A stretch of DNA of 64,000 bases from Candidatus Rariloculaceae bacterium (GTDB lineage Bacteria > Pseudomonadota > Gammaproteobacteria > Steroidobacterales > Rariloculaceae), in NCBI GenBank assembly GCA_965223375.1, contig OZ245000.1, forward strand, positions 776,939-840,938, given 5' to 3'. Below the pieces are notes generated by a model. The model was not told the DNA's origin, ran no database searches, and worked only from the letters and a program-made list of their open reading frames with translations. The stretch's first letter is position 1. Every line of letters begins with the position of its first letter. The position numbers were made by a program, and so were the translations under genes. This document shows, piece by piece, positions 23,865-41,157 of this stretch.

Positions 23865-25018
23865 GACACGCGACGAATCATCGATTCGTCGATATCCGAG
23901 ATCCGGCTGGCACCGAGCAGCGCCATGTCGCGCTCGACCTCGGACCTCAGAATCTTCAGTGCCTGCATGACACCCGCTTCGCCACCCGCACCGAGCCCGT
24001 ACAGATAGGGCCGCCCGGCCGAACAGACGGTCGCGCCGAGCGCAAGCGCCTTCAGAATGTGGGTACCGCGTCGCACACCGCCATCCAGGATGATCTCCAG
24101 CTCACCACCGACCGCATCGGCCACTTGCTTCAGCGTATCGAAGGGCGCCGGCGAATAGTCGAGCTGCCGACCGCCGTGATTCGACAGCATGACGGCCGTC
24201 GCGCCGACTTTTCGCGCGAGCTTCGCATCCTCGCCGGTCATCACGCCCTTGATCGCGAAGTGGCCGCCCCACTCGCCGATCATCCATTCCGCATCGGCCC
24301 AGGTGACGCTGCGATCGAGCTGATTGTTCAGATACTCGATGATGCCGCCGAGCTTGTCGCTGCCTGGGGGCGGACGGTGCGCGACATTCGCCATGTCTAT
24401 CTTCGGTGACGTCAGATGACGGTAAACCCACGCGGGATGCATCGCGATATCGATCAGACTCATCAGTGACAGCCGGGGCGGCACGGTCATGCCGGTAACG
24501 ATGTCCCGCTCACGGTTCCCGGACACCGCGACATCTACGGTGAGCTGCAGAGCCTTGTAGCCGGACTCCCGGGCGCGCTCGAAGAACTCGCGCGTCAGGC
24601 CGCGATCCTTCAGCACGTAAACCTGGAAGGCCTTGGGTCCGGAAGTGAGCTTCGCGACTTCCTCGATGCTCATTGACGAAAAACTGGACAACGAATAGAA
24701 GGTGCCGAACGCATCCGCGGCTCGCGCAACCGCACGCTCGCCCTCGTAGTGAAACAGGCGGGACAAGGCGGTCGGCGAGCAGAAAAAGGGCCAGTCGATG
24801 CGCTCACCGAATACGCTGGCCGACATGTCGATCTTGGCAACGTCTACGAGACATCGCGGCTGGAACTCGAAGGCGTCGAATGCGTCGGTGTTCCGCCGCA
24901 GCGTCCACTCATCGTCGGCGGCGCCGTCGATATAGTGAAACATCGGTGCCGGCAGGCGCTTCTGAGCGAGCTTCCTCAGCTCGCGAATGTTGTAGCAGCG
25001 CTCGACGCGACTGATCAT
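23861..25018 (-). CDS. FMN-dependent alpha-hydroxy-acid dehydrogenase/oxidase (L-lactate dehydrogenase LldD-like)
   Basis: The N-terminus YNIRELRKLAQKRLPAPMFHYIDGAADDEWTLRRN and the C-terminal half SNHGGRQLD are hallmarks of the family. 4-nt overlap with the fdhD start. Confidence 0.85.
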   Translation of the reverse strand: MISRVERCYNIRELRKLAQKRLPAPMFHYIDGAADDEWTLRRNTDAFDAFEFQPRCLVDVAKIDMSASVFGERIDWPFFCSPTALSRLFHYEGERAVARAADAFGTFYSLSSFSSMSIEEVAKLTSGPKAFQVYVLKDRGLTREFFERARESGYKALQLTVDVAVSGNRERDIVTGMTVPPRLSLMSLIDIAMHPAWVYRHLTSPKIDMANVAHRPPPGSDKLGGIIEYLNNQLDRSVTWADAEWMIGEWGGHFAIKGVMTGEDAKLARKVGATAVMLSNHGGRQLDYSPAPFDTLKQVADAVGGELEIILDGGVRRGTHILKALALGATVCSAGRPYLYGLGAGGEAGVMQALKILRSEVERDMALLGASRISDIDESMIRRVS

Positions 25019-25248
25019 TGCTATTGGGCTCCGGACGCCGGACGCGGATCGATCCGTTCGTAGCGCTGCCGGAGATCCGGCAACGCCGCAGTCGACTCGG
25101 GAATCATTCTCGCCTGATATTCGATCTGGAAGCGACCGATCTAGTATACCTGCCGGGTATCCCCGCCGAGGTCGGATGCCGCAAGCCGACCGGGCCGCAG
25201 AAAGGCGGGGATTACCGACTGATCGACATTTCAGCGCGGAATTTGCCC

Positions 25249-25254
25249 TATAAT
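25249..25254 (+). promoter_or_regulatory. candidate sigma-70 -10 box (TATAAT) upstream of the HMG-CoA synthase gene
   Basis: A perfect TATAAT sits in the locally AT-richer 308-bp divergent intergenic region, 73 nt upstream of ATG 25327. There is no convincing -35 at 17-bp spacing (TCGACA lies 20 bp upstream). Confidence 0.25.
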
Positions 25255-25326
25255 TCCGTTGCGCACAGCCGTTCGTGGGGGACGGCGATCCGAGTTCAGC
25301 ACAGTGGGACGTCCCAGGGGTTTTCT

Positions 25327-26790
25327 ATGATCGAACCTGTCGGTATCAGCGGCTTCGCCGTGTATGTGCCGCCATATCGAGTTGACCTGAAGTCCTGGTG
25401 CGAGTGGACCGACTCACCGTGGGACAAGACCGAAGCCGTGGTCGGGCGAAGCTTCAGAATGCGCGGCCCCGCCCAGAGCGTCTACACGATCGCCGCGAAT
25501 GCGGTCCTCAGGCTGATCGAAAACTACGGAATCGACCCTGCCAGAATCGGCTTTCTCGGCCTCGGCACGGAATCGAGCACCGACAACTCGGCTGGAGCCG
25601 TGATCATCAAAGGCATGATCGACGACGCCCTGAAGGCTCGCGGACAGGCGCCGATCAGCCGCAACTGCGAGGTGCCGGAGGTCAAGCATGCCTGCCTGGG
25701 CGGCGTCTACGCGATCAAGCATGCGCTCCGCTACCTCGCGCTCGAGGACCGGGATCGCTGCGCGATCGTTGTCAGCGCAGACATCGCCGAATATGCGCGC
25801 GGCAGCTCCGGTGAGCCGACTCAGGGCGCCGGCGGCGTCGCAATGCTTCTCGAAAAGAAGCCGCGGCTACTCGAAATCGATCTCAGAAACATCGGCAGCG
25901 CATCGTCCTACCGAGCTGTCGACTTTCGCAAGCCCGTCCTGCGAAACATCATTCGCGGCAAGCTGAACTGCCATTTCCAGGATCTGCCGGTATTCAACGG
26001 CAAGTACTCGACGACGTGTTACCTCGATGAAACTCTGCATGCGCTGAATGACATGCTGCGGAGGATGGGCAAGGAACCGGCGGACTACTATCGTGAGCTT
26101 GCCGCGACATTTCTGCATCGGCCCTATCACCGAATGCCTGAAACGTCCTTCGCGATGAGCTATCTGTTCGCTCTTGGCCGCGACGGAGACCGCGGCCGCG
26201 AGATTCTCCGCCGCCACTGCGAGCACATCGACATCGACGTCGATGCCGTTCTCGCGGAAATGCACTCGAGCCCCGACGTATTGCAGCTCGTACGCGACGG
26301 CAGAATCGACGAAGACGTCTATCCGCTCTGTGTCGCACTGCTGCGTGAGTTCCGCAAGAGCGACGAGTTCCGCGAATTCGTGAAGTCGAAAATGTCACTT
26401 GGCTCCGACATCATGAAGGACATCGGTAACGTCTACTGCGCCGCACTCCCGGCATGGATCGCCGCCGGCATGGAGGAAGCTGCCCGTGGCGATCAGGATC
26501 TGGCCGGTAGAAAGATTCTCGCCGTCGGTTACGGCAGCGGCGACGCCGCCGAAGCGATTCCTATGACGGTCGCGGCCGGCTGGAAAGATGCCGCCCTTCG
26601 CATCGGCTTCGCTGCATCGCTCGAGTCGGCTCAGGACCTGACGCGCGCACAGTACGAAGCGCTGCACGATTCAGGGACGGCTGACGGTCTCACGAACCCC
26701 GGCGACGGCTTCGTAATCGAAGAGATCGGTCGCAATAAGAATCCGCAGCTCAGCGATGAGGGAATCGAGTACTACCGATTCCTGAACTGA
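25327..26790 (+). CDS. mvaS: hydroxymethylglutaryl-CoA synthase (long, 487-aa form)
   Basis: HMGS motifs GLGTESSTDNS (Glu), KHACLGG (catalytic Cys), SADIAEY and EPTQGAGGVAML. Start moved to ATG 25327. Confidence 0.8.
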   Translation: MIEPVGISGFAVYVPPYRVDLKSWCEWTDSPWDKTEAVVGRSFRMRGPAQSVYTIAANAVLRLIENYGIDPARIGFLGLGTESSTDNSAGAVIIKGMIDDALKARGQAPISRNCEVPEVKHACLGGVYAIKHALRYLALEDRDRCAIVVSADIAEYARGSSGEPTQGAGGVAMLLEKKPRLLEIDLRNIGSASSYRAVDFRKPVLRNIIRGKLNCHFQDLPVFNGKYSTTCYLDETLHALNDMLRRMGKEPADYYRELAATFLHRPYHRMPETSFAMSYLFALGRDGDRGREILRRHCEHIDIDVDAVLAEMHSSPDVLQLVRDGRIDEDVYPLCVALLREFRKSDEFREFVKSKMSLGSDIMKDIGNVYCAALPAWIAAGMEEAARGDQDLAGRKILAVGYGSGDAAEAIPMTVAAGWKDAALRIGFAASLESAQDLTRAQYEALHDSGTADGLTNPGDGFVIEEIGRNKNPQLSDEGIEYYRFLN

Positions 26791-26893
26791 CGCCGGCGGA
26801 TGCGCGAGTCTCTGGCCCGGATGTCTCGCCGATTCGCCCCCGAGAGAGTTGCGGATGTCCGAACATCGCGGCTCTTCGGCGCGCCGACCTCGC

Positions 26894-27505: not shown

Positions 27506-27521
27506 CGAGGCCTCTCCGTTA

Positions 27522-28652
27522 TCAGCGTGCGGCGTAGGACCGACCCTTCCACTCCGCCCGGATGCCGCGCCACCACATCAACGCGGACAGCCAGGTCATC
27601 CCCAGATAGAGCGCAGCTGCGATCGGGAACGTCAAAAGCCAGACCGGCGACAGACCGAACCAGCGGTGGACCGGGCGGTAGCCTGTCAGCATCGCTGCGA
27701 ATGCGAGCGCGGCCAGCGCGACGCCGTACGCGTCCGGATGCAGCCAGAGGACGAGAAATGGCCCGCCGAAAACCAGCAGCATCAGCGCGGTGACGGCGAG
27801 CAGCAAAGCGAGCGAATAGCGCAACTGGGTAAAAGCCGTTCTCGACACCATCGCAGCGAATGACGACAGACTGACATAGCGCCGCTGACTGACGACTGAA
27901 CGACTCAAGCCGAGCCAGATCGAAGCGCCGCTGCGCTTGACGAGCCGCGCGAGCGTGCAGTCGTCTATCAGTGCGTCCCGGAACGACTCGAATGCGCCGA
28001 TGCTCCGGAGAGCGTCGCGGCGCACCAGAATGCAGCCGCCGGCAGCCGCCGCAACCGGGGACGAGGGATTGTTGACGCGCGCGAACGGATAAATCACCTT
28101 GAAGAAGTAGATGAATGGCGGCACGAGAAGCCGCTCCCAGAACGACAGGCAGCGAAGCTCTGCCATCACCGAAACCATGGCCCTTGGGCCTCGAGCAGCC
28201 TCTTTCAGCAATGCCGCTGCCACGCCGGGCGCAAGCTCGATATCCGCGTCGAGCAACCAGACCCAGTCGCGCGTTGCTTCGCGCAGCCCCTGATCGAGCG
28301 CCCACAGCTTGCCGCCCCAGCCGGGAGGCAGTGCCGCACCACGCAGCAGGTCGATCTGCAGCGTCCCGGAATGGGCTTCCACGGCGGCCTCCACGACCGC
28401 TGCCGTCGCATCGGACGACTGATCATCAACGACGATGACGGCGAGATTCCGCCCCTGCGATGCAAGACCGGAGAGGGTCGATCCGATGTGCGCTGCCTCG
28501 TTGCGAGCCGGAATGATGACGGTGACGTTCGACAGATCCGGCAGATCGCCCGTCTCCGGCTCGAGCCGCTCGCGGGTCATCCACGGGCGCGACGGCAGCA
28601 GCAGCAGGCTGAGCCAGGCAAAAGCGGCGAAGGCGCCAATCAGCAGGGCCAT
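27522..28652 (-). CDS. hopanoid-associated family-2 glycosyltransferase (HpnB/HpnI-like)
   Basis: An N-terminal TM segment, then the GT2 core VTVIIPARNEA...VVDDQSSD...LLDADI and C-terminal TM segments. I cannot separate HpnB from HpnI by eye. Confidence 0.7.
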   Translation of the reverse strand: MALLIGAFAAFAWLSLLLLPSRPWMTRERLEPETGDLPDLSNVTVIIPARNEAAHIGSTLSGLASQGRNLAVIVVDDQSSDATAAVVEAAVEAHSGTLQIDLLRGAALPPGWGGKLWALDQGLREATRDWVWLLDADIELAPGVAAALLKEAARGPRAMVSVMAELRCLSFWERLLVPPFIYFFKVIYPFARVNNPSSPVAAAAGGCILVRRDALRSIGAFESFRDALIDDCTLARLVKRSGASIWLGLSRSVVSQRRYVSLSSFAAMVSRTAFTQLRYSLALLLAVTALMLLVFGGPFLVLWLHPDAYGVALAALAFAAMLTGYRPVHRWFGLSPVWLLTFPIAAALYLGMTWLSALMWWRGIRAEWKGRSYAAR

Positions 28653-28730
28653 TTCGGCGCCACGCTCACGTCGGGCAACGAGCCGACAGGCTGGCCTCCG
28701 GCAGGGCCCGTGACGGGAGCGGCGTGACCG

Positions 28731-29852
28731 TCAGTCCCCGGACCGGGAACGATTGCCTATCTGGTCTATCGAGACGCTGACGTCAGACGCATGCCCGCCG
28801 TGCAGCACAGGCAGCTCCGGCGCCATCTCACCATCGAGCTTCGGACCGAAGAGCATCACGCTCAGCGCTTTGAGCGGGCTTGAGATCGTGTGCTCGACGG
28901 CCGTGCCTTCGTAGCCACAGTGCGCCATGCAGTTGTCGCACTTCGGGTTGATCCCGGTACCGTAGCGACTCCACTCGGTCGTCTCCATCAGCTCCTGATA
29001 CGTCTGCGCGTAGCCCTCATCGACCAGCAGATAGCACGGCTTCTGCCAGCCAAAAATGTTGTACGTCGGATTCGCCCACGGCGTGCACTGATATGTCTGG
29101 TTGCCTGCAAGGAAATCGACGAAGAGGCTCGACTGATTGAAGCGCCACTTGCTGCCGCGCTTCCGACCGACTCTGAAAATGTCCCGGAACAACTGCTTCG
29201 AGTTCCGCCGTCCCATGAAGACATCCTGACGCGGCGCATGATCGTAGCTGTAACCGGGGGACAGCATGACGCCTTCCAGGCCGAGCGTCATCGCATAGTC
29301 GAAAAAGTCCGCAACGTCTTCCGGATCCTCGCCCGCATAAAGCGTGCAATTGGCCGTTACGCGAAATCCCCGGTCGCGGGCAGCCTCGATCGCGGACACG
29401 GCCTTGTCGAAGACCCCGCCGCGACACACCGATTCGTCGTGACGGTTGCGGTTGCCATCGAGATGTATCGACCAGGTCAGATACGGCGAGGGTTCGTACT
29501 GATCGATCTTCTGCTCGAGCAGAATCGCATTGGTGCAGAGATAGACGAACTTCTTCCGATCGACGATCCCCTGGACGATCTGCGGCATTTCCTTGTGGAT
29601 CAGCGGCTCGCCACCGGGGATCGACACGACCGGGGCGCCGCACTCGTCGACCGCACGGAGCGCATCCTCGACACTCATGCGCTTACGCAGAATGTCGTTC
29701 GAGTAGTCGATCTTGCCACAGCCGGCACAGGCAAGGTTGCACTGAAACAGCGGCTCCAGCATCAACACGAGCGGATACCGCTTATTCCCCTTGAGCTTCT
29801 GCTCGAGAATATAGCGGCCGATTCGGTAGGTCTGAACCAGTGGAATTGACAT
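28731..29852 (-). CDS. hpnH: adenosyl-hopene transferase (radical SAM) HpnH
   Basis: KRYPLVLMLEPLFQCNLACAGCGKIDY (CxxxCxxC) and ECGAPVVSIPGGEPLIHKEMPQIV..RKKFVYLCTNA closely match HpnH as I remember it. Confidence 0.9.
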   Translation of the reverse strand: MSIPLVQTYRIGRYILEQKLKGNKRYPLVLMLEPLFQCNLACAGCGKIDYSNDILRKRMSVEDALRAVDECGAPVVSIPGGEPLIHKEMPQIVQGIVDRKKFVYLCTNAILLEQKIDQYEPSPYLTWSIHLDGNRNRHDESVCRGGVFDKAVSAIEAARDRGFRVTANCTLYAGEDPEDVADFFDYAMTLGLEGVMLSPGYSYDHAPRQDVFMGRRNSKQLFRDIFRVGRKRGSKWRFNQSSLFVDFLAGNQTYQCTPWANPTYNIFGWQKPCYLLVDEGYAQTYQELMETTEWSRYGTGINPKCDNCMAHCGYEGTAVEHTISSPLKALSVMLFGPKLDGEMAPELPVLHGGHASDVSVSIDQIGNRSRSGD

Positions 29853-29888
29853 AACCGATTCCCTTGTATGCCTGCGTCGTTACGCCGC

Positions 29889-30476
29889 TCAGTCGCGACC
29901 CGCAGATTTTGCCACAGGCTGCGACACGATGGCGTCCATGAAGTGCCGCTGCAGATGCGACCACTCCATTTTGAACCACGGGGTGAATCTGTCCGGGTGG
30001 GAAGCCAGCTCGGCATCCAGCGCCGGGACATCGACGAAGCGCCAGTCGGCGATTTCGCTGACGTTGACGTCGACCGGCCCGTCGTAGCGGCCGAGATACA
30101 CCCAGCAATACTCGTGCTCGGCACCGACCGCACCGTACTGCGCGTGATACTTGAACTTGTAAAGAAACTGCAGCGGGCACTCGAAACCGAGCTCCTGCCT
30201 CAGCCGCCGCGTAACGGCCAGGTCCATCGACTCACCGCGACGCGGGTGCGAGCAGCAGGTGTTCGACCAGTAATTCGGCCACAGCGGCTTCGATTCGCTG
30301 CGCTGCTGCAGCAGAAGCTCGTCGTCCGCGTTGAAGACGAATATCGAGAACGCGCGGTGCAGGATGCCGTTGCCGGCATGGCATTCGCTCTTCAGCTCGC
30401 AACCGATCTCGCGGTCGAGCTCGTCGACGAGGATCAGCTCTTCGCTCGAGCTAGAGACGACCTCCTCACGCGCCAT
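29889..30476 (-). CDS. idi: isopentenyl-diphosphate delta-isomerase, type 1 (Nudix)
   Basis: HRAFSIFVFN, LLLQQRS..K..WP..WSNTCCSHP and E..A..RRL.EELG motifs. The start overlaps the stop of the upstream fusion gene by 11 nt. Confidence 0.9.
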   Translation of the reverse strand: MAREEVVSSSSEELILVDELDREIGCELKSECHAGNGILHRAFSIFVFNADDELLLQQRSESKPLWPNYWSNTCCSHPRRGESMDLAVTRRLRQELGFECPLQFLYKFKYHAQYGAVGAEHEYCWVYLGRYDGPVDVNVSEIADWRFVDVPALDAELASHPDRFTPWFKMEWSHLQRHFMDAIVSQPVAKSAGRD

Positions 30477-32739
30477 TGGGGTCTGCTCCGAGGTCCACTT
30501 CTACCGCCTGATAACCGGCGGCCCTGATCGCGTTGACGACCGGCGCCCGATCGCCGTCGCAGATCGCAATGATCGAACCACCGCCACCCCCGCCCGTGAG
30601 TTTCGCGCCGAGGGCACCGCTTTCCCTGGAAATGTCGACCAGCTGCTCGAGCTCCGGCGTCGACACCTGCAATGCATTGAGCATACCGTGACAGATGTTC
30701 ATCAGCTCGCCGAGCTGCTTCAGATCGTTATCCCGTATCGCCTGCACGCCACGCAACGTGAGGGCGTCGATCTGATCGAATATCCGTTCGTAGAGCTTGG
30801 GATCCTGCTTCCACGCATCGCGGACGCGGCCGACGGTTCTTGCGGTGAGCCCTTCGTAGCCGGTCATGCCGATCACTGCCGGAATCGGCTGCACAATATT
30901 GAGCGGCTCGACCAGCGGCGGATCGCCGGGCCGGTACACCAGCGGCTTCGCGTAGCACGCCAGCGTATTGTCGAGCCCGCTCGGGCTCCCGTGGGCGACT
31001 TTCTCCGACTCGAACGCCAGCGCGTTGACCTCTTCGTCGGACAAGCCGAGACGGAAGTGCTTGTCGAGCGCCCTGACGATCGCAACGGCCATTGCCGCGG
31101 AGCCCCCGAGACCCATGCTGCGAGGCACTTCCGGAAAGACCTCGATGCGCATCCCGCGACCGCTCAGACCCAGCTTGTCGAGCACTACGCCGGCCGGGCG
31201 CTCGAAAGAACGGCGCTCGTGAGGATTCGATGCGAGCTCGTACTCGACACCCCAGCGCGGAATCAACAGATGCAGGCCCCGGTCGCAGTCCTCGACCATC
31301 GCCTTGATCGCCATCGGGACCGGCGCGGCGATCGCATGCCTGCCGTAGACGACCGCGTGCTCGCCCAACAACACTACCTTGCCGTAGCCGACTCCCATTG
31401 ACTCGTCGGTACGGCGCTTCGGACCGGGTGAATCGCTCTGCTGGCCCTCGGCCTCGATCTCCCCGATGATTTCCTGCGCCTTCCAGACCTTGATCACGCC
31501 ACTTTGAACGAGGCGGTCGAGCACCTCGTCGAATATCTCGTCATTCGCACCCGCGGCAGTCACGACGCTGCGGGCATGAAGGGTCATGTGACCCTTCTGA
31601 ATCCCTTCCGTCGCGAGCGCGCGAATTGCCGCGAAATTCTGTGCCAGGCCGACGCAGGCCATGATCTCCGCGAGCTGCATCGAGGACTCGACCTCCAGCA
31701 GGCGCAGATTCAGCGCAACGGTCGGATTCGATTCGAGCGGCGCTCCGACGATACCGACCTTGATCGGGATCTCGATCTCCCCACACAGGTTACCGTCGTC
31801 GTCCGCATACCACTTCGTCAGCGACGTATAGCGGCCGCCGCGTGCCGCATACGCGTGGGCACCCGCCTCGATCGCCCGCCAGTCGTTGCCGGTGGCGATC
31901 GCAACCGGATCGATGCCGTTCATGATGCCCTTGTTGTGCGTCGCGGCGCGGTACGGATCGACGGCGGCGAACTCGGCCGCAACCACGATTCCGTCGCGGG
32001 CTTCCTCGCCGGAATAGCCGCGACCCGCGAGCTTTTCGACGGGAATCCTGCAGGCGGCCCGGGCGACGGAGCGATCCGTCAGATTGGAAAGTATCCGCAG
32101 AAAGACCGAGCCGCCGGTCAACGACTCGATCAGCGGTGCGACGCCTTCACACATGCCATTGACGAGATTGGCGCCCATCGCATCGCGTGTATCGACGAGC
32201 AGATGAACGACCAGCATACGGCTGCCACTCGACGGCTGCGGATGCACGTGCAGCTCGATGTCCCGGGCACCGCCGCCACGGGCAACCATGTTCGGATGAA
32301 AGCTGTTCGCGAGATTCAGAATCTCGCGCTTGTGAGCCGTCAGCGTCTCTTTGGCCCGTTCTATGTCCGTCAGACTGACGATCTGGATCTGGCCGATGAG
32401 CACGGGATCGGTCGCCGAGGCCGTGAAGCCGCCGGCGCTTCGCACCAGCTTGCAGGCCGATCCCAGCGCGGCGACCACCGAAGGCTCCTCGACGACCATC
32501 GGCACGATGTGCTGCCGCCCGTTGACGAGGAGGTTCATGCCGAGGCCGAGCGGCAGCCCCATGACGCCGACGACGTTCTCGATCATCTTGTCCGCCGCTG
32601 CGGGATCGAGTGTGTGCCTGCCTGTTGCAAGCGCGCGGAAGTCGTTGGCGTTCAGGAGACCCCGCTCCTGCACGGCGCGCAGCCGCTCTTCGACACTGAG
32701 CTTGTAAAACTCGGGGATTCTCAAGCGCTCGTCGGACAC
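30466..32739 (-). CDS. mvaA-mvk: fusion protein: class II HMG-CoA reductase (aa 1 to about 425) + mevalonate kinase (aa about 448-757)
   Basis: The N-terminal half is near-collinear with Pseudomonas mevalonii HMGR (IENVVG, VVEEPSVVAA, DTRDAMGAN, DPYRAATHNKGIMNGIDPVAIATGNDWRAIEAGAHAYA, ALATEGIQKGHMTLHAR). A polar linker EAEGQQSDSPGPKRRTDES follows. The C-terminal half is a GHMP kinase (GKVVLLGEHAVVYG, GLGGSAAMAVA, GAKLTGGGGGGS). No stop codon lies between the halves. Confidence 0.85.
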   Translation of the reverse strand: MSDERLRIPEFYKLSVEERLRAVQERGLLNANDFRALATGRHTLDPAAADKMIENVVGVMGLPLGLGMNLLVNGRQHIVPMVVEEPSVVAALGSACKLVRSAGGFTASATDPVLIGQIQIVSLTDIERAKETLTAHKREILNLANSFHPNMVARGGGARDIELHVHPQPSSGSRMLVVHLLVDTRDAMGANLVNGMCEGVAPLIESLTGGSVFLRILSNLTDRSVARAACRIPVEKLAGRGYSGEEARDGIVVAAEFAAVDPYRAATHNKGIMNGIDPVAIATGNDWRAIEAGAHAYAARGGRYTSLTKWYADDDGNLCGEIEIPIKVGIVGAPLESNPTVALNLRLLEVESSMQLAEIMACVGLAQNFAAIRALATEGIQKGHMTLHARSVVTAAGANDEIFDEVLDRLVQSGVIKVWKAQEIIGEIEAEGQQSDSPGPKRRTDESMGVGYGKVVLLGEHAVVYGRHAIAAPVPMAIKAMVEDCDRGLHLLIPRWGVEYELASNPHERRSFERPAGVVLDKLGLSGRGMRIEVFPEVPRSMGLGGSAAMAVAIVRALDKHFRLGLSDEEVNALAFESEKVAHGSPSGLDNTLACYAKPLVYRPGDPPLVEPLNIVQPIPAVIGMTGYEGLTARTVGRVRDAWKQDPKLYERIFDQIDALTLRGVQAIRDNDLKQLGELMNICHGMLNALQVSTPELEQLVDISRESGALGAKLTGGGGGGSIIAICDGDRAPVVNAIRAAGYQAVEVDLGADPNGA

Positions 32740-33729
32740 CTAGGCGATTTCCTCGACTTCAAGCCCTGCCTGATCCGGCACGATATCGATGACCCGGTAG
32801 CCGCGGTCGCCCACGGCCGCACGGAACGCGCTCAGCTGCCCGGGGTCCGCGCTGGCTGCGATCCCCAGGTCGCCGCCGCCGGCGCCACTCACCTTGTATG
32901 CCACGTTGAACCGCCTGGCCAAACTGCCGATCTCCCTGTGCTGACTGGTTACCAGGTCGACGCCCATCGCCTCGCCGAGACGATCCAGGCAATCGCCGTA
33001 CGCTGCCATTGCCGCCATCAGCCGGTCCCCGTCACCATCGCTGACAGCCCCCGCGCCATCGGCAGCCAGGTCAGCCATTGCTGCCAGCATCGCCCGCGCC
33101 GCCGAGGGCTGCGCGCGCTGCCATTGCCGATACCGTCCCACCAGGTCGGCCGTCGAGGCAGAGCTGCCGGCAAAAATACCCGCGAATCCTACACTGTTCG
33201 GCAGCCGGACTGAACCAAAATGGGGCACGAATTCGGCATCCAGGCGATACTCGAGCACGCCTCCGCGGCAAGAGCAGGCGACGTCGAGCCCGCTGCCAGC
33301 CCCGCCCTGAAAGCGCCTGTGCACGCTTATCAGCTCGGCGGGATCGGGCAAATCGTCCGATCCGGCCGCGCGCGACCAGACACCGGCCCAGGCCACCAGC
33401 GCCGCGGCGCTCGAACCGAGGCCGAGCTTCGTCTTGCCGAGCCAGAACGCCCCGGAATCGAGGCGGCCGCGCCACGCAGGCCACGCGATCGGCGGCGCCG
33501 TCCCGATGAACTCGTCGACGAGCGTCGCACCGGTCGGCTCACCGGCAAAAAACTCGAGCAGGGTCTCGGCGTCCGTGCGCAGCATCAGCGCGGACCGCGG
33601 ACCGGGAACCGGCTCGATCTCGGCTACGACGTGCCGCCCGACCGCCATGACCAGCGCGGCAACGCCATCGAGCACCGCGTATTCGCCAAGCAGCACGAGC
33701 TTGCCGGGCGCGCGCGCGATGATTCTCAT
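32740..33729 (-). CDS. mvaK2: phosphomevalonate kinase (GHMP family)
   Basis: From ATG 33729: MRIIARAPGKLVLLGEYAVLDG, GLGSSAAALVA and KVSGAGGGDLG. ATGA overlap with the mvaD stop, and its stop abuts the start of the fusion gene. The PMK assignment rests on context plus the GHMP motifs. Confidence 0.7.
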   Translation of the reverse strand: MRIIARAPGKLVLLGEYAVLDGVAALVMAVGRHVVAEIEPVPGPRSALMLRTDAETLLEFFAGEPTGATLVDEFIGTAPPIAWPAWRGRLDSGAFWLGKTKLGLGSSAAALVAWAGVWSRAAGSDDLPDPAELISVHRRFQGGAGSGLDVACSCRGGVLEYRLDAEFVPHFGSVRLPNSVGFAGIFAGSSASTADLVGRYRQWQRAQPSAARAMLAAMADLAADGAGAVSDGDGDRLMAAMAAYGDCLDRLGEAMGVDLVTSQHREIGSLARRFNVAYKVSGAGGGDLGIAASADPGQLSAFRAAVGDRGYRVIDIVPDQAGLEVEEIA

Positions 33730-34727
33730 TCGGCCGTTTCCGCCGAGTCCGGCAGCGTCTCTATGCCCGGGCCAAGGCCGGTCACGATCAGGTCGACGAC
33801 GCCCTCCACTGCGCGCAGTCTCTGCTCCACGGCCGGCGCCGCCTCCGGCAGGCAAACTGCCTTCACCTGCGGCCCGGCATCGATAGTGAAGAACACGGGG
33901 CTACCGGCGGCACGCAGCTCACGAACCGCGGCAATGCACGCAAGCGTCGCCGGCCTCCAGTAGATGAGCGGCGGGTCCGTCGTGATTGCCGCAGCATGCA
34001 TTTTCAGGCAACTCGACTCTGAGACCCGCGCCAGGCTGTCGAAATCGCGCGCATCGATCGCGTCGCGCGCGGCCCGCATGTCGGCGTCGTGCGAGTCAAC
34101 CCAGGCCGCATAGTAGGCCGACGACGCGGCCGACTGCGTCATGCCACGACCGGAGCTGACCGCCTTCCTGCCACCGGCCGTAATGGCGACGATGACGGTC
34201 AGCGGCCACGCATCGGCTTCCAGCAGCGGCTCGGCATACGCATCGGAGCCGTCTTCGTCTCGGCCGCGGTGCATCCAGACGTAGCCTCCGTGCAGCGACC
34301 GCGCCGCCGAGCCGGACCCCCGGCGAGCGAGAATCGTGAGCTCGCGATCGTCGAGGTCGAGCGAGAGGGCCCGCGTTGCCGCGGCCGTCAGCGCCGCGAA
34401 TCCGGACGCCGACGACGCCAGACCCGCGGCGGTCGGGAAGTTGTTCCGGCTCACGATGCGTGCCCGCAGGTCCGTGCCGGCGACTTCGCGAACGAGGTCC
34501 AGCCACTTCGAGACGCGGCCGACTTCAGCGTCGCGGGTCTCGCCGTCGAGAACGAGCGTGTCGGCCGCGTACGCCCGATCGAAAGAAACGGTCGTGTCGG
34601 TCCAGAGACGATCGAGTGTGATCGACACCGATCCAACAGCCGGTGTGTTCAGCACCGGATCGCGCTTGCCCCAATACTTGACGAGCGCGATATTGGAACG
34701 CGCTCGTACACTGGCCGTCGCCGTCAA
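33726..34727 (-). CDS. mvaD: diphosphomevalonate decarboxylase
   Basis: SNIALVKYWGKRD, SITL and TAAGLASSASGFAAL motifs. Confidence 0.9.
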   Translation of the reverse strand: MTATASVRARSNIALVKYWGKRDPVLNTPAVGSVSITLDRLWTDTTVSFDRAYAADTLVLDGETRDAEVGRVSKWLDLVREVAGTDLRARIVSRNNFPTAAGLASSASGFAALTAAATRALSLDLDDRELTILARRGSGSAARSLHGGYVWMHRGRDEDGSDAYAEPLLEADAWPLTVIVAITAGGRKAVSSGRGMTQSAASSAYYAAWVDSHDADMRAARDAIDARDFDSLARVSESSCLKMHAAAITTDPPLIYWRPATLACIAAVRELRAAGSPVFFTIDAGPQVKAVCLPEAAPAVEQRLRAVEGVVDLIVTGLGPGIETLPDSAETAE

Positions 34728-34757
34728 ATCTCAGCCCTCACTTCTGTCTCCACGCGG

Positions 34758-35747
34758 TCACCTGACGTAGCCGTTGACCGCAAACCATGACAGGGCGTCC
34801 CGAATCGCCTCCTCCGGCGGTCGCGCCTGGTACCCGAGCGCTGCCCTCGCCTTCGCACTCGAGAAGTACATGTGCTTGCGGGACATTCGCAACCCGTCGA
34901 GCGTAACCGGCGGCTCGATGCGCGTCAGCCTGCCGATCAACTCACCGACGAGCGCGACCGGATAAATCGCTGCGCGCGGCAGACGGATACGCGGAGGCCT
35001 GCGATTCGCGAGCCGGGCAACGGTACCCAGTATCTCCCGCAGACTCATGTCGTCGCCACCGAGCACATAACGCTGCCCGGGCTCGCCTCTGTCGCGTGCC
35101 AGCAGATGTCCGGCGGCGACATCGTCGACATGGACGATGTTCAGCCCGGTATCGACATAGGCCGGCATACGGCCGGAAGCCGCGTCGACGATGATCCGAC
35201 CCGTCGGCGTCGGCCTGATGTCGCGCGGTCCGATCGGCGTCGACGGGTTGACGGTAACAACCGGGAAACCGAGCGCCCTGCTGCGCTCGCGCACGACCTG
35301 CTCGGCGAGAAACTTCGAGCGTTTGTAGGGTCCGATCATGTCGGCCAGCGCCACCGGCGTTTCCTCGTCGGCCGGCGTTCTGTCGTCGTTGATTCCGAGC
35401 ACGGCGACGCTCGACGTGTAGACCATGCCTGCCAGGCCCGCCTCGGCGGCACACTCGACGACATTGATCGATCCCTCTACGTTGGTCGCATACATCGGCG
35501 CGGGATCCGGGACCCAAAGCCGATAATCGGCGGCGACATGGAAGACGTACCGGCCGCCACTAAAGGCACTGACCAGGGACTGACGGTCGCGCAGATCGCC
35601 CTCGACAATCTCGACGTCGAGACGCTCGAGATTGCGCCTGTCACTGCCGGGGCGAACGAGTGCCCGGACGAGTTCGCCTGCGCCGAGCAGTCGTCGCACG
35701 ACGGCGGCGCCGACGAAGCCGTTCGCGCCTGTGACGATTGCCGTCAT
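34758..35747 (-). CDS. hpnA: hopanoid-associated NAD-dependent sugar epimerase/dehydratase HpnA
   Basis: IVTGANGFVGAAVVRRLL Rossmann motif and YxxxK (YKRSK). Length and context match HpnA. Confidence 0.75.
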   Translation of the reverse strand: MTAIVTGANGFVGAAVVRRLLGAGELVRALVRPGSDRRNLERLDVEIVEGDLRDRQSLVSAFSGGRYVFHVAADYRLWVPDPAPMYATNVEGSINVVECAAEAGLAGMVYTSSVAVLGINDDRTPADEETPVALADMIGPYKRSKFLAEQVVRERSRALGFPVVTVNPSTPIGPRDIRPTPTGRIIVDAASGRMPAYVDTGLNIVHVDDVAAGHLLARDRGEPGQRYVLGGDDMSLREILGTVARLANRRPPRIRLPRAAIYPVALVGELIGRLTRIEPPVTLDGLRMSRKHMYFSSAKARAALGYQARPPEEAIRDALSWFAVNGYVR

Positions 35748-38350
35748 GTCCGCTTCCTTAGTGCCAGCAACGACGGCAGCAGTATCAGGGTAGCCGCAAG
35801 CGTTACGAGCATGCCTATCGTCAGAAGCTTGCCCATGCTCGCGGTGCCGACGTGACTCGAGAACGCGAGGTTACCGAAACTGGCAATCGTCGTAAGGCCG
35901 CTTGCGAGCACTGCGCGTGACGTGCTGGTCGCAAATGTGCCGCCCTCGCGCGGCTCCGTTCGGTTGCGGTGCACGATGTGGATGCCGTTGTCCACACCGA
36001 CACCGATCAGCAGCGGCAAAGCGATGATGTTTGCGAAATTGAAGGGCAGCCCGAACCAGACGGCGATTGCAGCTGTCGTAGCCGAGGCGAACAGAATCGG
36101 CAACAGCACCAGGATCGTATCGCCGATGCGCCGGAGCAGAATCAACAGGAGAATCGCGACGACGCCGAGCGCCAGACTCAGCGCCTGGCGGAATGCGCCG
36201 ACTATCGTTCGCGACGCCTCACGATAGACGACGGGCAGCCCGGTAGCGTTCGGCACGACCGCTCTGACTGCATCGACGAAACGGGACGCCGCCTCATTGT
36301 CATTGAGGTCTTCAGCAGGAACGAACTCGACCAATTCGCGCCCGTCGGGGCCGATCCACCGTTCGGCGAGCGCCGCGGGCAGATCGGACACCGTGAACGG
36401 TTCGGCGTCGAGGCCGGCAGCCAGCCGGCCGATCTGCGTGGTGAAATCGGACCGCAATGCGCGGTCGAGAGCTGCAGCGCGCGCCACTCCCCCGGCTGCG
36501 TCGGTCGCTGCGGACACGCCCAGCCAGCGCTCGATCGCTGCCGCGAGGCGCGGCGCACCGGCCACGCTTTCGCCCCGAACTGCAGTCAGCAGGTCGCGCA
36601 TCGCCCGTTCCAGCTGTGTGGCATCGAATGCCTGCGCGGTGACATTGCCGAACCCGGCGCCGAGCACGAAGCGCAAGTCGTCGAGCACGAGCAGCTTCTC
36701 TTCCTGGTCACCAGGCACCAGTGACGATGCGCCGACGACGCGGTCCACCAGCGGATCGGCGGCCAGCGCCGCGCGCCATCGGTCGACATCTGTGCGGTCT
36801 TCGGCGATCGCCAGCATGCTGAACATCGGCGCCTCGCTGCGTTCGGCCAGCTCGCTCAGCAGCCGGACCGACTCCGACTCCGGATCGCGCAGATGAATCG
36901 GGTTGCTGTCGAATTCGAGCCCCGGCAAAGCCAGTAACGAGGCGATCGACAGCGCGGCCGCCATGACGACCACGACACGTGCGGCACCGCCGGCGCGCGC
37001 CGGGTTGAAGGCGCGCACCGGCAGCCTTGCGGATGCCGCCGAGAACTCGCCGGCCGGCCTCCATGCGACGGCCAGCAGCGCGGGCAGCAGCACGAGGCTG
37101 GCCACGAGGCTGATGAACATCCCGCCACCTGAAATCAGACCGAGCTCCGAGACGCCATCGAAGTCGGTTGGCATGAATGCGAAGAAGCCGGCAGCCGTCG
37201 TGACTGCACAAATGACCAGCGATGCCCCGACCCCGTGTGCCGTCCGCGCCAGGGCTTCGACTCGCTCGATTCCCGTTGCGAGCAGCTCCTTGTGCCGGAG
37301 ACAGAAATGCAGAATGAAATCGACGCCAAGGCCGACATAAAGCACCGCGAAAGCCACTGAAATCAGATTCAGATGCCCGACGGCGAACGCTGCGAACGCG
37401 GCCGTGAATACCAGGCCGGTGAGCAGTGTAAGTATCGAGACGATCAGCAGCACGACGGATCGCAGCGTCCAAAGAAGCACGACGACGACCATGACGAGCG
37501 CGGCGATGCCGGCCGCTGCAGCCCCCCGGGTCACGCTGATCAGCTCCTCGTGCTCCATGGCCACAGTCCCGGAGAGCCTGACGGTCACCGGCGCCGCAGC
37601 AGCCTCGGAAACCTGCTCCGCCGCGTCCCGGATCGCGTCGATAGCGGCGGCGGCCGGTTGCACGCGCCCGAAGTCGAGCACCGGCCGCAGCAGCAGCAAC
37701 GGCGTTGCAGTCGAAGCGGCATCGACCTCGAACAGTGATTGCCAGCGAAGCAGCCGGGACGCGCCGTCCGCGTCTGCTTCGATCGTCAGCGCGATCTCCC
37801 CGAGCAGGCCTTCGATACCGTCGGCCACGGACAACTCGTCCGCGGTAACGGCCATGGCAGCGACGTCGAGCACGGCCGCTCCGCCGAAGCCGCGGCTGAG
37901 GCGGCCGACGAGAGGCTGAGCCGCAACGAGATCATCGCTGAGCGATTCGAGTTGTCCGAGAGAGAGATAGAGCAAGCCGTTGCGATCGAAGAACTCGCCG
38001 AATCCGGCGAGAAAGACGCTCTCGAAATGTGCGGGTTGCGCGGCGAGGGTCGCGGCGAGCGCCCGGGCGGCGTCCGTTGCGACGTCCGGGTTCGCCGCAT
38101 CGACAGCAACGATGATGTTGCGATCGCGGGCCGGAAACGCCTCCCGAAAAGCAATGAAATCCCGCCGCCACTCGAGCTCCGGGGAAATCATGTTGGCCGT
38201 GTCCGTGTTGATTCCAAGGTTGCCGGCGACGTAGCGGCCTGCTCCGCTCGCGAGCAACATCACGCCGACAATGACGATGATCGGATGGCGGCCTACCGCA
38301 CGCACGAGCGTCGCGAGCGGGTCACCGATCAGACTGCGTTCCGTGCTCAC
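35744..38350 (-). CDS. hpnN: RND/MMPL-superfamily hopanoid transporter HpnN
   Basis: 868 aa with two 6-TM bundles separated by large periplasmic loops, MMPL-like. 4-nt overlaps with the hpnG stop and the hpnA start. Confidence 0.8.
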   Translation of the reverse strand: MSTERSLIGDPLATLVRAVGRHPIIVIVGVMLLASGAGRYVAGNLGINTDTANMISPELEWRRDFIAFREAFPARDRNIIVAVDAANPDVATDAARALAATLAAQPAHFESVFLAGFGEFFDRNGLLYLSLGQLESLSDDLVAAQPLVGRLSRGFGGAAVLDVAAMAVTADELSVADGIEGLLGEIALTIEADADGASRLLRWQSLFEVDAASTATPLLLLRPVLDFGRVQPAAAAIDAIRDAAEQVSEAAAAPVTVRLSGTVAMEHEELISVTRGAAAAGIAALVMVVVVLLWTLRSVVLLIVSILTLLTGLVFTAAFAAFAVGHLNLISVAFAVLYVGLGVDFILHFCLRHKELLATGIERVEALARTAHGVGASLVICAVTTAAGFFAFMPTDFDGVSELGLISGGGMFISLVASLVLLPALLAVAWRPAGEFSAASARLPVRAFNPARAGGAARVVVVMAAALSIASLLALPGLEFDSNPIHLRDPESESVRLLSELAERSEAPMFSMLAIAEDRTDVDRWRAALAADPLVDRVVGASSLVPGDQEEKLLVLDDLRFVLGAGFGNVTAQAFDATQLERAMRDLLTAVRGESVAGAPRLAAAIERWLGVSAATDAAGGVARAAALDRALRSDFTTQIGRLAAGLDAEPFTVSDLPAALAERWIGPDGRELVEFVPAEDLNDNEAASRFVDAVRAVVPNATGLPVVYREASRTIVGAFRQALSLALGVVAILLLILLRRIGDTILVLLPILFASATTAAIAVWFGLPFNFANIIALPLLIGVGVDNGIHIVHRNRTEPREGGTFATSTSRAVLASGLTTIASFGNLAFSSHVGTASMGKLLTIGMLVTLAATLILLPSLLALRKRT

Positions 38351-39108
38351 GCGCTGATCCGCTCGGCCGGGTCGAACGCGAAACGGGAGCCGCCCAGGCA
38401 GGCGGCGATGCCCCGGAGCGCCGCGTGTGCCTTGGCCGACCGCCGCCCGAGCTCGCGAAACTCCCGAAGACTCGACGGCCGGCGAAAGAGCGCCCGCACG
38501 ACCCGCGGCACGGACACTCCGCCACGCGCCGTTACGAGCGTCGCAACATCTTGCAGCAAGGCATCGGCCGGGCCGTCGACGACGGCGCGGACGACCAGCA
38601 GCGGAATGTCCTGTTGTGCGGCCGTCGCGGCTATCGCATAAGACTCCATGTCAACGACGGCTGCCGCCGGAAACCGGGCGGCGAGTGCAGCCTTCGCCCC
38701 GGGCGTCGTTACCGGCTCACCGGCATCGACCACTTCCCCTTCAAGCAGCTCGAACCGACCGGCAAGCTCGGTCATGACCCGAGCGCGCCAGCGAGAGTCG
38801 ACTTCGATGGCCGGCCTGCCTTCCCGCAGGACCCGGCGGGGCAGGCAGACGACTCCCGTGACTGCGTCGGGCGCGATCCCGCCCGCTACACCCCAGGAGA
38901 CGAGTGCCATGGCGCCGCTCCGCACCGCCCGTGCCGCGGCGTCGCCGGCTGCGGCGGAACCCGGGCCGGATTGAATCACTTCGATTCCGCGCCCGCTAAC
39001 GGCGTGCCCCGTCAGCGTGCGGCGCTCGGTTGCGAGCGCGGCAATCGCGGCGATCGCGCCCGGCCGCCCGGCAATTCGTTGCCCCGGTTCACCGGGGTCG
39101 GGAGACAC
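38347..39108 (-). CDS. hpnG: hopanoid-associated phosphorylase/nucleosidase HpnG (PNP_UDP_1 family)
   Basis: Nucleoside phosphorylase-fold motifs (LVSWGVAGGI, VVDMESYAIA) and operon position. The GTG start at 39108 overlaps the sqs TAG by 1 nt. Confidence 0.7.
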   Translation of the reverse strand: MSPDPGEPGQRIAGRPGAIAAIAALATERRTLTGHAVSGRGIEVIQSGPGSAAAGDAAARAVRSGAMALVSWGVAGGIAPDAVTGVVCLPRRVLREGRPAIEVDSRWRARVMTELAGRFELLEGEVVDAGEPVTTPGAKAALAARFPAAAVVDMESYAIAATAAQQDIPLLVVRAVVDGPADALLQDVATLVTARGGVSVPRVVRALFRRPSSLREFRELGRRSAKAHAALRGIAACLGGSRFAFDPAERISA

Positions 39109-40205
39109 TAGGAAGCTCCGGAAACCGTCCCGAAATGATGAACGCCCGGAAACGGCGCCGGCACGGCTAACGGCAGCCCATCCGCGGCTCGATCGAAGAC
39201 GAGGCGCAACGCCCGGTTGCTCATCAGTGTCATGTTCGTCGTCATGATCGTCGCCTTGACGGTCCGCCGGGAAACCTTGACCTCGGCACCCGAGCTGAAC
39301 GCGGGATTCGCATGGATCTTACGCAAGGTGAGAACGGCAAGACCGATCGCCCACAGGCAGAACTTGCGTATCCCGGTCTCGCGCTTCGGAATCCTGCAGG
39401 TGTATTCGAGAGCGTTTCGCAGATGCGCGTGCGCAACTCCGACAAGCTCGGCAAGACCGGCAGCGAAATCCTCTGTCGTGTGCTGCGCTTCGATATCGGT
39501 CAGCTTCACGCCATGCGCAGCAAAAACGGACCGCGGCCACCAGCACGTATCGGCTTCGCGATCGTCCCAGACATCCTTGAGAATGTTCGTCATCTGCAGA
39601 CCCTGACCGAAAGAAACAGCAAGCCGCATCATTTCGTCACGCTCACTGCCGAGGTCCGGGCAATGCTGACAGAAGAGATCCGTCAGCATTTCGCCGACCA
39701 CGCCCGCTACGTAGTAACAATAAAGATCGAGCTGCGGCAGATCCGCAAGCCCCTCCAGACTCTTGTTGCGCTGGAACGCAGGCATGCCGTCGCACATGAT
39801 TCTTACGCAGCGCTCGATCGCCGACCGGGATTCGGCAGGAAAGCTGTGCAGAACGCGGATCACCTTGTCCGTGGCAGCCACAAGCTCGCGCTCGGCAGCG
39901 AGCGTGCGATTGCTCAGCAGCGGCGCCAGATCCGCCGCGAACGATTCCGGGTTGTCGACGCCTTCGACAACGGCGACGAAACGGGAGTGGAATTCGGACT
40001 TCTGGACATCGTCCAGCCCGACGTCATCCTCGATCGTATCGGCAAGGCGGCAAAGCAGATAGGCGTTCGTTACGACCTCTGACAGCGGCGAGGGCAGTAC
40101 GGGGATAGTCAGTGCGAACGTGCGCGAAACACCTGGCAGTATCCCGGCCTGATAGGCGAGGTCTGCCCGCGCGGCTGCCTCTGCGCGAGGTGATTGGGTA
40201 TTCAC
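39108..40205 (-). CDS. sqs: squalene synthase (single-enzyme, eukaryote/Methylococcus-type; squalene/phytoene synthase family)
   Basis: 365 aa with SRTFALTIPVLP...AYLLCRLADTIEDD (first Asp-rich motif) and GEMLTDL...QMTNILKDVWDD (second). It is longer than HpnC/HpnD-type proteins. Confidence 0.75.
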   Translation of the reverse strand: MNTQSPRAEAAARADLAYQAGILPGVSRTFALTIPVLPSPLSEVVTNAYLLCRLADTIEDDVGLDDVQKSEFHSRFVAVVEGVDNPESFAADLAPLLSNRTLAAERELVAATDKVIRVLHSFPAESRSAIERCVRIMCDGMPAFQRNKSLEGLADLPQLDLYCYYVAGVVGEMLTDLFCQHCPDLGSERDEMMRLAVSFGQGLQMTNILKDVWDDREADTCWWPRSVFAAHGVKLTDIEAQHTTEDFAAGLAELVGVAHAHLRNALEYTCRIPKRETGIRKFCLWAIGLAVLTLRKIHANPAFSSGAEVKVSRRTVKATIMTTNMTLMSNRALRLVFDRAADGLPLAVPAPFPGVHHFGTVSGAS

Positions 40206-40248: not shown

Positions 40249-41157
40249 ATGATAGCACGTGCCCCGAGCAGCGACTTCTCCGAACGCGTCGACACCTACC
40301 GCGAACGAGTCGAGAACCGCCTCGATCATGCGATAAATTCCGATTCGGCCGTACCGCAATCGCTGCGTGATGCGATGTCGTACTCGGTGCTCGGCGGCGG
40401 CAAGCGCGTAAGACCGTTACTGTGCTACGCATCGGCGGAACTTTGCGGCGTTGCTATCGACGCCGTAGACACGATCGCAGCAGCGGTCGAACTGGTGCAT
40501 GCGTATTCGCTGGTTCACGACGATCTGCCGGCAATGGACGACGACGATCTGCGTCGCGGCCGCCCGACGACTCACCGGCAATTCGACGAAGCTACGGCCA
40601 TTCTCGCCGGCGACGCGCTACAGGCACTCGCGTTCGAGATTCTCTGCGACGACGAGTCGCTGCAACGCACGCCCGATCGTCAGTCGAGCGTCATCGCGAC
40701 GCTTGCGCGCGCGATCGGCCCCGCCGGAATGGTCGGCGGACAGATCCTCGATATCGAAGCGGAGGGCCGCGAGCTGAACGAAGCCGGGCTCGAAGCAGTC
40801 CACCGCCGCAAGACGGGCCGTCTGATCTGGGCTGCCATTACGATGCCGAGCCTGCTCGCCGATCTGTCGGCCGATCAACGAACGAACCTGGATGTTTTTG
40901 CGACCGAGATTGGCCTCGTCTTCCAGATACGCGACGATCTGCTCGAGGTGGAGCAGGATACGACCACGCTCGGCAAGAATGCGGCAAGCGATGCCGAGAA
41001 AGACAAGTCGACTTACCCCTCGGTTCTTGGGGTCGAAGCAGCCCGGGCGCGTGCGGACAGCACGTTCTCGTCGGCGAACGCCGCACTCGAACGCGTCGGA
41101 GGCGACACGAGCGGCCTGCGCTGGGTATCGGACTTCATTCTGCGGCGCGTCTACTGA
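40249..41157 (+). CDS. ispA: farnesyl diphosphate synthase / (2E,6E)-farnesyl diphosphate synthase
   Basis: FARM motif LVHDDLPAMDDDDLRRGRPT, SARM motif FQIRDDLLE and GGKRVRPLL. Divergent from sqs across only 43 bp. Confidence 0.9.
   Translation: MIARAPSSDFSERVDTYRERVENRLDHAINSDSAVPQSLRDAMSYSVLGGGKRVRPLLCYASAELCGVAIDAVDTIAAAVELVHAYSLVHDDLPAMDDDDLRRGRPTTHRQFDEATAILAGDALQALAFEILCDDESLQRTPDRQSSVIATLARAIGPAGMVGGQILDIEAEGRELNEAGLEAVHRRKTGRLIWAAITMPSLLADLSADQRTNLDVFATEIGLVFQIRDDLLEVEQDTTTLGKNAASDAEKDKSTYPSVLGVEAARARADSTFSSANAALERVGGDTSGLRWVSDFILRRVY

Follow-up and report, generated by a model that had tools for sequence, protein, structure and literature searches.

A class II HMG-CoA reductase fused to mevalonate kinase in a mevalonate operon within a hopanoid gene cluster

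The fused gene and its two halves

Analysis of a 64,000-nucleotide stretch of contig OZ245000.1 (the window) from Candidatus Rariloculaceae bacterium, an uncultured soil gammaproteobacterium, confirmed that one open reading frame (ORF) encodes a complete class II 3-hydroxy-3-methylglutaryl coenzyme A (HMG-CoA) reductase (HMGR), a disordered linker, and a complete mevalonate kinase (MVK). The gene lies on the minus strand in a tightly packed operon with the order diphosphomevalonate decarboxylase (MVD), phosphomevalonate kinase (PMK), HMGR-MVK, and isopentenyl diphosphate (IPP) isomerase (IDI), which is itself placed within a hopanoid gene cluster (Table 1). Neither the ORF listing nor the translation contains an internal stop among the 757 codons. 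The original prediction had read this ORF as a single polypeptide joining the two enzymes, leaving its strand unstated, and the reading is supported by the domain profiles, the uninterrupted frame, and conservation across species. All of the motifs it quoted were recovered in the translation (IENVVG, DAMGAN, ATHNKGIMNGID, ATGNDWRA, and GIQKGHMTLHAR in the reductase; EAEGQQSDSPGPKRRTDES in the linker; GEHAVVYG, GLGGSAA, and KLTGGGGGGS in the kinase), and the codon for Met448 does start at 31398. Pfam places HMG-CoA_red at residues 15 to 389 (E = 3e-109), GHMP_kinases_N at 518 to 596, and GHMP_kinases_C at 666 to 743.

By every sequence-level feature tested, the N-terminal half belongs to the class II HMGRs. 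It scored 411.4 bits with the NCBIfam model TIGR00532 (cut-off, 259.95), whereas the class I model TIGR00533 gave only 51.5 bits (cut-off, 441.8), and the Pfam profile PF00368 was covered over positions 1 to 368 of 368 with 365.7 bits. A search of PDB sequences showed residues 7 to 420 to be collinear with the HMGR of Pseudomonas mevalonii (PDB 1qax and others; E = 5e-120; ~50% identity), which has the same fold. Glu83, Lys267, Asp283, and His381, the catalytic residues of the P. mevalonii enzyme, align in HMMER to E85, K270, D286, and H384 of the fusion, so that all four are common to the two proteins. In a conservation alignment of 98 fusions (79 GTDB loci, 18 diverse representatives, and the window protein), the first three were found in 98/98 sequences and H384 in 97/98. 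The AlphaFold2 model predicts a C-terminal three-helix flap (helices 380 to 395, 400 to 413, and 418 to 433) that carries the catalytic His384, and Foldseek matched this half to closed ternary complexes of the P. mevalonii enzyme with target-normalized TM-scores of 0.89 to 0.94 over ~420 columns.

The C-terminal half is, by the same kind of evidence, a member of the MVK family. It exceeded the cut-off of the mevalonate kinase equivalog model TIGR00549 over residues 453 to 725 (226.5 bits versus 163.05), while the models for galactokinase (74.9 versus 443 bits), PMK (46.2 versus 165.7), homoserine kinase (44.7 versus 194), and IspE (23.9 versus 286) all fell below theirs. Among PDB sequences, residues 444 to 740 align to Leishmania major MVK (E = 6e-45); the ten best matches of this half are all MVKs, and so are the matches above galactokinase level. 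The GHMP motifs I (GKVVLLGEHAVVYG), II (GLGGSAA), and III (KLTGGGGGGS), together with SGLD and its catalytic Asp590, have their counterparts in the L. major enzyme in GKVILFGEHFVV, GIGASAS, KLSGTGRGG, and SGADN, respectively. Across the 98 fusions, K454 and D590 are present in every sequence, S547, GLGxSAA, and the glycine-rich motif III are invariant or nearly so, and the N-terminal MVK signature GKxxLxGEHxVVxG is conserved. Foldseek aligned this half to the MVKs of L. major and Methanosarcina mazei with target-normalized TM-scores of 0.78 to 0.87.

The original prediction had named a closer relationship of this half to another GHMP kinase as a ground for rejecting it. Such a reading would make the C-terminal half a PMK or mevalonate-3-kinase, for example, and the neighboring GHMP kinase gene the true MVK. 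It draws on the divergence of that neighbor, which lies below all curated cut-offs and fits MVK about as well as PMK structures. The half itself speaks for MVK, since it passes TIGR00549 while the PMK, galactokinase, homoserine kinase, and IspE models stay far below their thresholds, its ten best PDB matches are MVKs with E values down to 4e-45, and the signature motif is retained. We therefore consider an exchange of roles between the two kinases very unlikely and retain MVK as the assignment of the C-terminal half.

Reading frame, linker, and translation of the fusion

Scanning one genome per GTDB species yielded 212 relatives, the best 80 loci of which were kept; these together with a contig from the European Nucleotide Archive (ENA) gave 81 loci from 80 species. 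The ENA contig, from an unrelated metagenome, encodes the identical 757-residue protein with the same neighbors. In 81/81 loci, the products of many assemblers and technologies, a single frame runs through both halves without an intervening stop. The linker has 16 to 23 residues in these loci, among which Lys, Arg, Glu, Ser, and Pro are frequent, and its sequence in one lineage bears no relation to that in another; its length differs by whole codons only, which in an otherwise unconstrained segment is a signature of selection for read-through translation. Assemblies from JGI, ENA, NCBI, and Logan contain more than 120 clusters at 90% identity, of 754 to 762 residues, with the same three Pfam domains, and two complete assemblies of Caldithrix abyssi DSM 13497, made independently, carry the fusion as well.

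These data bear on the possibility that a missed stop or a frameshift in assembly or sequencing had merged two separate genes. The unfused form does exist in nature: hmgr and mvk of Teredinibacter turnerae overlap by 4 nucleotides, so that a 1-nucleotide error could mimic a fusion. This explanation is nevertheless effectively refuted already by the independent contig with the identical product, the uninterrupted frame across 80 species, the restriction of linker length to whole codons, and the agreement of both C. abyssi assemblies. The original prediction had proposed to look for a stop or frameshift in independent sequence of the linker and to search protein databases for HMG-CoA_red followed by GHMP domains; no interruption appeared, and the architecture was found in the clusters described above.

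The AlphaFold2 model, built as a monomer from a 50-sequence alignment, had a mean predicted local distance difference test score (pLDDT) of 82.9, with both halves confident and residues 433 to 443 below 50; its predicted TM-score (pTM) was 0.54, and as a monomer model it is uninformative on the oligomer and on the orientation of the halves to each other. The model accordingly shows two rigid units joined by a flexible tether, and it predicts no fixed interface between them. The parent enzymes of both halves are dimers. Foldseek found no PDB chain that spans both halves.

The in-frame ATG of Met448 had been put forward as a possible independent start of the kinase half. As a general feature, this did not hold: the codon aligned to Met448 is ATG in 36/80 species and GTG or TTG in 7, whereas the remaining 37 have CTC, GTC, ACC, or other codons that do not serve as starts, and a Shine-Dalgarno (SD)-like 5-mer precedes this position in 14/80 species, compared with 36/42 for the true gene start. 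In the window, no SD-like motif lies upstream of Met448. The codon is best explained as what remains of the start of the ancestral mvk gene and not as a second start kept by conservation. A broader form of the same idea holds that one ORF yields two proteins in vivo, either from Met448 or by proteolysis in the exposed linker, whose predicted disorder and many Lys and Arg residues may leave it open to proteases; the ATG at 31398 and at the aligned position of 36 species would fit this as well. We regard it as unlikely in light of the 37 species with a non-start codon, the scarcity of SD-like 5-mers at this position in a linker that is purine-rich anyway, the lack of such a motif before Met448 in the window, and the strict frame across a hypervariable linker, which separate production of the halves would not require.

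Gene context and proposed function

The genes surrounding the fusion are listed in Table 1.

Table 1. Fused gene, its parts, and neighboring genes in the window
Feature	Coordinates	Strand	Remarks
HMGR-MVK fusion gene	30466..32739	minus	757 codons plus stop; GTG start
Class II HMGR half	31441..32739	minus	Residues 1-433; Pfam, NCBIfam, alignment to P. mevalonii HMGR, AlphaFold2, Foldseek
Interdomain linker	31399..31440	minus	Residues 434-447 (~14), GQQSDSPGPKRRTDES region; AlphaFold2 pLDDT, 81-locus comparison
MVK half	30466..31398	minus	Residues 448-757 plus stop; TIGR00549, PDB MVK matches, conservation, Foldseek
Divergent GHMP kinase, presumed PMK	32740..33729	minus	Upstream of fusion
MVD	33726..34727	minus	TIGR01240, 280.7 bits (cut-off, 171)
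Type 1 IPP isomerase (IDI)	29889..30476	minus	NF002995, 162.7 bits (cut-off, 127); overlaps fusion 3' end by 11 nucleotides
HMG-CoA synthase (HMGS)	25018..26790	plus	Mechanical ORF; homology from ~residue 106, true start probably ~25330
hpnB	27522..28652	minus	Downstream of fusion, same orientation
hpnH	28731..29852	minus	Downstream of fusion, same orientation
hpnA, hpnN, hpnG-like phosphorylase (below cut-off), squalene-synthase-family gene (below cut-off)	34758..40205	minus	Upstream
Farnesyl diphosphate synthase (FPPS)	40249..41157	plus	Divergently transcribed

The presence of HMGS, PMK, MVD, IDI, FPPS, and hopanoid genes around the fusion indicates that the operon is biosynthetic, despite the database name "degradative" of the best reductase profile. 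From this gene content, the pathway appears to be a complete, biosynthetic mevalonate pathway that would supply the hopanoid gene cluster. Among the annotated genes of the cluster there is no second MVK, and neither a squalene-hopene cyclase nor genes of the methylerythritol phosphate (MEP) pathway were found among the large ORFs of the window.

The class II HMGR reaction is freely reversible, and the reductase half could in principle run catabolically, from mevalonate to HMG-CoA, as in P. mevalonii. The name of its best profile, TIGR00532 ("HMG-CoA reductase, degradative"), and its ~50% identity to the catabolic enzyme would accord with this. The P. mevalonii protein, however, is stand-alone and NAD dependent, and the two differ in the cofactor helix, which reads D146-Q-L-L-N-S-L152 in P. 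mevalonii and H148-P-N-M-V-A-R154 in the window, with His and Asn in place of Asp146 and Leu148. The rule of Miller and Kung, in the form in which it is quoted in PMC13488460, gives Dx(V/L)xxxL for NADH-type and (H/Y)xSxxxR for NADPH-type enzymes; the window helix lacks the former and resembles the latter, and its H148 and R154 are kept in 87/98 and 94/98 fusions. On this motif, the reductase half probably prefers NADPH. No HMG-CoA lyase, as would be expected in a catabolic gene context, occurs among the annotated neighbors, the operon carries biosynthetic genes including the squalene-synthase-family and hopanoid genes, and in a mevalonate-consuming protein the dehydrogenase and the kinase would compete for one substrate. 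The fusion thus does not fit the NADH-dependent catabolic HMGR subgroup in either cofactor motif or gene context, and a catabolic direction is extremely improbable.

Our results strongly suggest that the ORF specifies one bifunctional protein of ~80 kDa, which very probably converts HMG-CoA to mevalonate and then to mevalonate-5-phosphate in a mevalonate pathway supplying hopanoid synthesis. The N-terminal class II HMGR would reduce HMG-CoA to mevalonate, probably with NADPH, and the C-terminal MVK would phosphorylate mevalonate with ATP, so that, as we infer, both activities would reside on one chain in vivo. The selective benefit probably lies in a fixed 1:1 stoichiometry and in the proximity of the two enzymes, and the ATP-driven kinase would trap mevalonate and pull the reversible reductase reaction forward. 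The kinase joins the reductase at the mobile C-terminal flap, which closes over the active site, and a coupling of flap motion to the kinase is conceivable.

Several points weigh against this reading or narrow it. At the protein level, a single product and both activities are predictions, and any channeling is hypothetical. At position 3, the cofactor motif has Asn or Arg instead of Ser, which leaves the NADPH preference a prediction only. With a pTM of 0.54 and no defined contact between the halves, proximity can be argued for, but not a structured channel. The retention of ATG at the old MVK start in ~45% of species makes some internal initiation possible in these, and, because the neighboring GHMP kinase is diverged and ambiguous, the roles of MVK and PMK are assigned partly by elimination.

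HMGR catalyzes the committed step, which controls the rate of the mevalonate pathway. A natural covalent union of HMGR with the ATP-driven step that follows lends itself directly to testing whether proximity or channeling improves flux, an effect that metabolic engineers pursue with synthetic fusions and scaffolds. C. abyssi (fused) and T. turnerae (split) are cultured comparators for such experiments. The practical value of the finding lies in this natural test case for enzyme proximity effects and in a corrected annotation; the understanding of either enzyme is unchanged by it.

Further features of the locus were noted. The mevalonate operon sits in the middle of the hopanoid cluster (27522 to 40205), between hpnB and hpnH on one side and hpnA, hpnN, and the hpnG-like gene on the other. 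The TAG stop of the presumed PMK gene abuts the GTG start of the fusion in the same frame (32737 to 32742, minus strand), with GAGGAA 10 to 15 nucleotides upstream, and read-through or a point mutation at this TAG would yield a PMK-HMGR-MVK protein. The presumed PMK scored 65.8 bits with the MVK model, 62 with Gram-positive PMK, and 52 with archaeal PMK, and it passed no NCBIfam cut-off; the PDB protein that it matches best is Lin0012 (3k17), from structural genomics, and its substrate is assigned only by elimination. For the squalene-synthase-family gene, the best model was TIGR01559 (single-enzyme squalene synthase; 121.5 bits versus a cut-off of 286.75), ahead of HpnC and HpnD. Two putative genes beside the cluster, at 26849 to 27793 (plus strand, 314 residues) and 21161 to 22384 (minus strand, 407 residues), matched no Pfam family, and the latter also matched no NCBIfam family. 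An Rfam scan of the window gave no match.

Distribution, origin, and related fusions

The HMGR-MVK fusion has been conserved across 80 or more species and occurs in several phyla. The closest 80 species are all uncultured and carry labels such as "Gammaproteobacteria bacterium," Candidatus Rariloculaceae or Rariloculus, and "Chromatiales." The gene order MVD-PMK-[HMGR-MVK]-IDI holds in the group with at least 72% identity (loci L001 to L047 and L049), and IDI follows the fusion in 77/81 loci; the fusion is flanked by hopanoid genes in the soil clade and by genes for squalene synthase (SQS) and FPPS in the marine clade. An exhaustive HMMER search of 1.8 billion representatives at 50% identity recovered 18 further complete HMGR-MVK clusters with 36 to 64% identity, along with many junction-spanning fragments. 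Named carriers include C. abyssi DSM 13497, Wenzhouxiangella, and metagenome-assembled genomes (MAGs) of Calditrichota, Melioribacteraceae, and Thermoanaerobaculaceae.

The "Chromatiales" loci (L050 to L081; 63 to 67% identity) have only HMGR-MVK and IDI adjacent, with MVD and the PMK-like gene not within 6 kb. In this group, as exemplified by L066, an acyl-CoA-synthetase-like gene is found on the other strand upstream, and downstream come a short-chain dehydrogenase/reductase (SDR) gene and an ATP-binding cassette (ABC) transporter. The 1,265-residue ORF of L066 was considered as a larger fusion with a further N-terminal partner and rejected, as its upstream 513 residues are domainless and a gene for an AMP-binding enzyme takes up the opposite strand. 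L061 carries, at 1 to 1824 on the reverse strand and upstream of the intact gene, a second, degenerate HMGR-MVK copy with HMGR segments (53 to 72% identity) and an MVK segment in three frames, possibly a pseudogene or a frameshifted paralogue.

In the neighbor-joining (NJ) tree, all deep nodes had bootstrap support of 0 to 34%. Its one supported result is that a fusion, P0143, nests with 87% bootstrap in a Myxococcota-type clade of stand-alone HMGRs, which implies that the fusion arose at least twice. The most likely origin of the fusion would be a pair of adjacent, translationally coupled hmgr and mvk genes, joined by loss of the stop codon and adjustment of the frame, with the old HMGR tail and the N-terminal leader of MVK becoming the flexible linker. 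T. turnerae presents the unfused form of this gene pair: its gene order matches that of the window (SQS_PSY family, PNP_UDP_1 phosphorylase [hpnG-like], hpnA-like epimerase, MVD, PMK, HMGR, MVK, IDI, hpnH-like, and HMGS), and its HMGR (WP_026337512/ACR12724) is 53% identical to that of the window, but HMGR (432 residues) and MVK (319 residues) are separate genes that overlap by ATGA. The HMGR tail and MVK leader together span ~22 residues between the conserved QxII and GKV anchors, compared with 27 in the window fusion, and correspond to the fusion linker in position and approximate length. The split genes may represent either the ancestral state or a secondary fission. The fusion is real but evolutionarily ordinary: the joining of adjacent genes for consecutive steps is a common event, and a specialist would find this case interesting rather than astonishing.

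The cultured C. abyssi DSM 13497, both assemblies of which are single contigs of ~5 Mb, has an HMGR-MVK protein of 760 residues (WP_071777813.1/UniRef100_A0A1J1CD01), which bears the annotation "HMG-CoA reductase, degradative," in the same order, MVD-PMK-[fusion]-IDI. It differs from the window in its phylum (Calditrichota), in an identity of ~59% to the window protein, and in the lack of flanking hopanoid genes, with glycosyltransferases following IDI instead. Enterococcus faecalis MvaE, in which acetoacetyl-CoA thiolase is fused to a class II HMGR (steps 1 and 3), is likewise a natural bifunctional protein of the mevalonate pathway, and its structures (PDB 7m1z and 7m3h) match the N-terminal half of the window protein with E = 5e-85. 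In MvaE, however, the thiolase is at the N terminus of HMGR, the steps are nonconsecutive, and the C-terminal flap is free, whereas in the window fusion the GHMP kinase extends from the C-terminal end of the flap and the steps are consecutive; Pfam and NCBIfam found no thiolase domain in the window protein, in which HMGR begins at residue 1, and it is not of the MvaE type. IspDF, a natural bifunctional MEP-pathway enzyme frequent in certain bacterial lineages (PMC13001223), is also a fusion of two isoprenoid-precursor enzymes but belongs to another pathway, with unrelated folds and nonconsecutive steps.

Source names shown for the fusion proteins are only "HMG-CoA reductase (degradative)" or "hypothetical protein." With such incomplete naming, pathway reconstructions could wrongly call MVK missing and the reductase catabolic, which would affect abundant soil and marine Gammaproteobacteria (Rariloculaceae and relatives), Calditrichota, and others. 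In full-text literature searches, with most subscription journals outside their scope and absence therefore not proven, no report of a natural HMGR-MVK fusion came to light, in agreement with the original prediction, which knew of no characterized case. Hoshino and Gaucher (2018) state only that fused partners were trimmed from alignments. Public databases display the architecture, but its name conceals it, and it is uncharacterized in the literature searched.

Other C-terminal fusions occur in the same family. HMGR-MVK-IDI triple fusions of ~928 to 953 residues, with a C-terminal NUDIX-type IPP isomerase, are represented by P0124, P0125, and ~40 further clusters, including P0287 (Desulfobacterales), P0316 (Woeseiaceae), and P0298 (on a 1.57-Mb contig); their domain order matches the gene order in the window, in which the IDI gene overlaps the fusion at its 3' end. 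In a clade of Myxococcota or "Deltaproteobacteria" type (P0395 to P0502; P0162, P0186, and P0180), class II HMGR is fused at its C terminus to isoprenoid enzymes: to a polyprenyl synthase (~780 to 830 residues; dozens of clusters), to an HpnA-like epimerase (~850 to 870 residues), to SQS and epimerase (~1,250 residues), or to polyprenyl synthase and SQS (1,162 to 1,453 residues). All of these multienzyme proteins are named only HMG-CoA reductase.

From the proteins with MVK and IDI, polyprenyl synthase, epimerase, SQS and epimerase, or polyprenyl synthase and SQS, we speculate that the C terminus of class II HMGR might be a recurrent docking point for covalent isoprenoid "assembly lines," with kinetic channeling or allosteric coupling possible; this idea we hold to be rather doubtful. 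If it were true, a kinase on the flap that gates the active site could give true kinetic channeling of mevalonate, and feedback inhibition of the kinase by downstream phosphates and diphosphates could be passed on to flap closure, by which the committed step would be regulated in bacteria without the eukaryotic controls of HMGR.

Fusions arranged the other way round, with an N-terminal GHMP kinase and a C-terminal HMGR, were also seen (P0145/P0526, from Myxococcota MAGs and of 704 residues, and P0159, P0165, and P0197). P0145 matches the MVK half well; the others have a more divergent GHMP domain, which could be a PMK.

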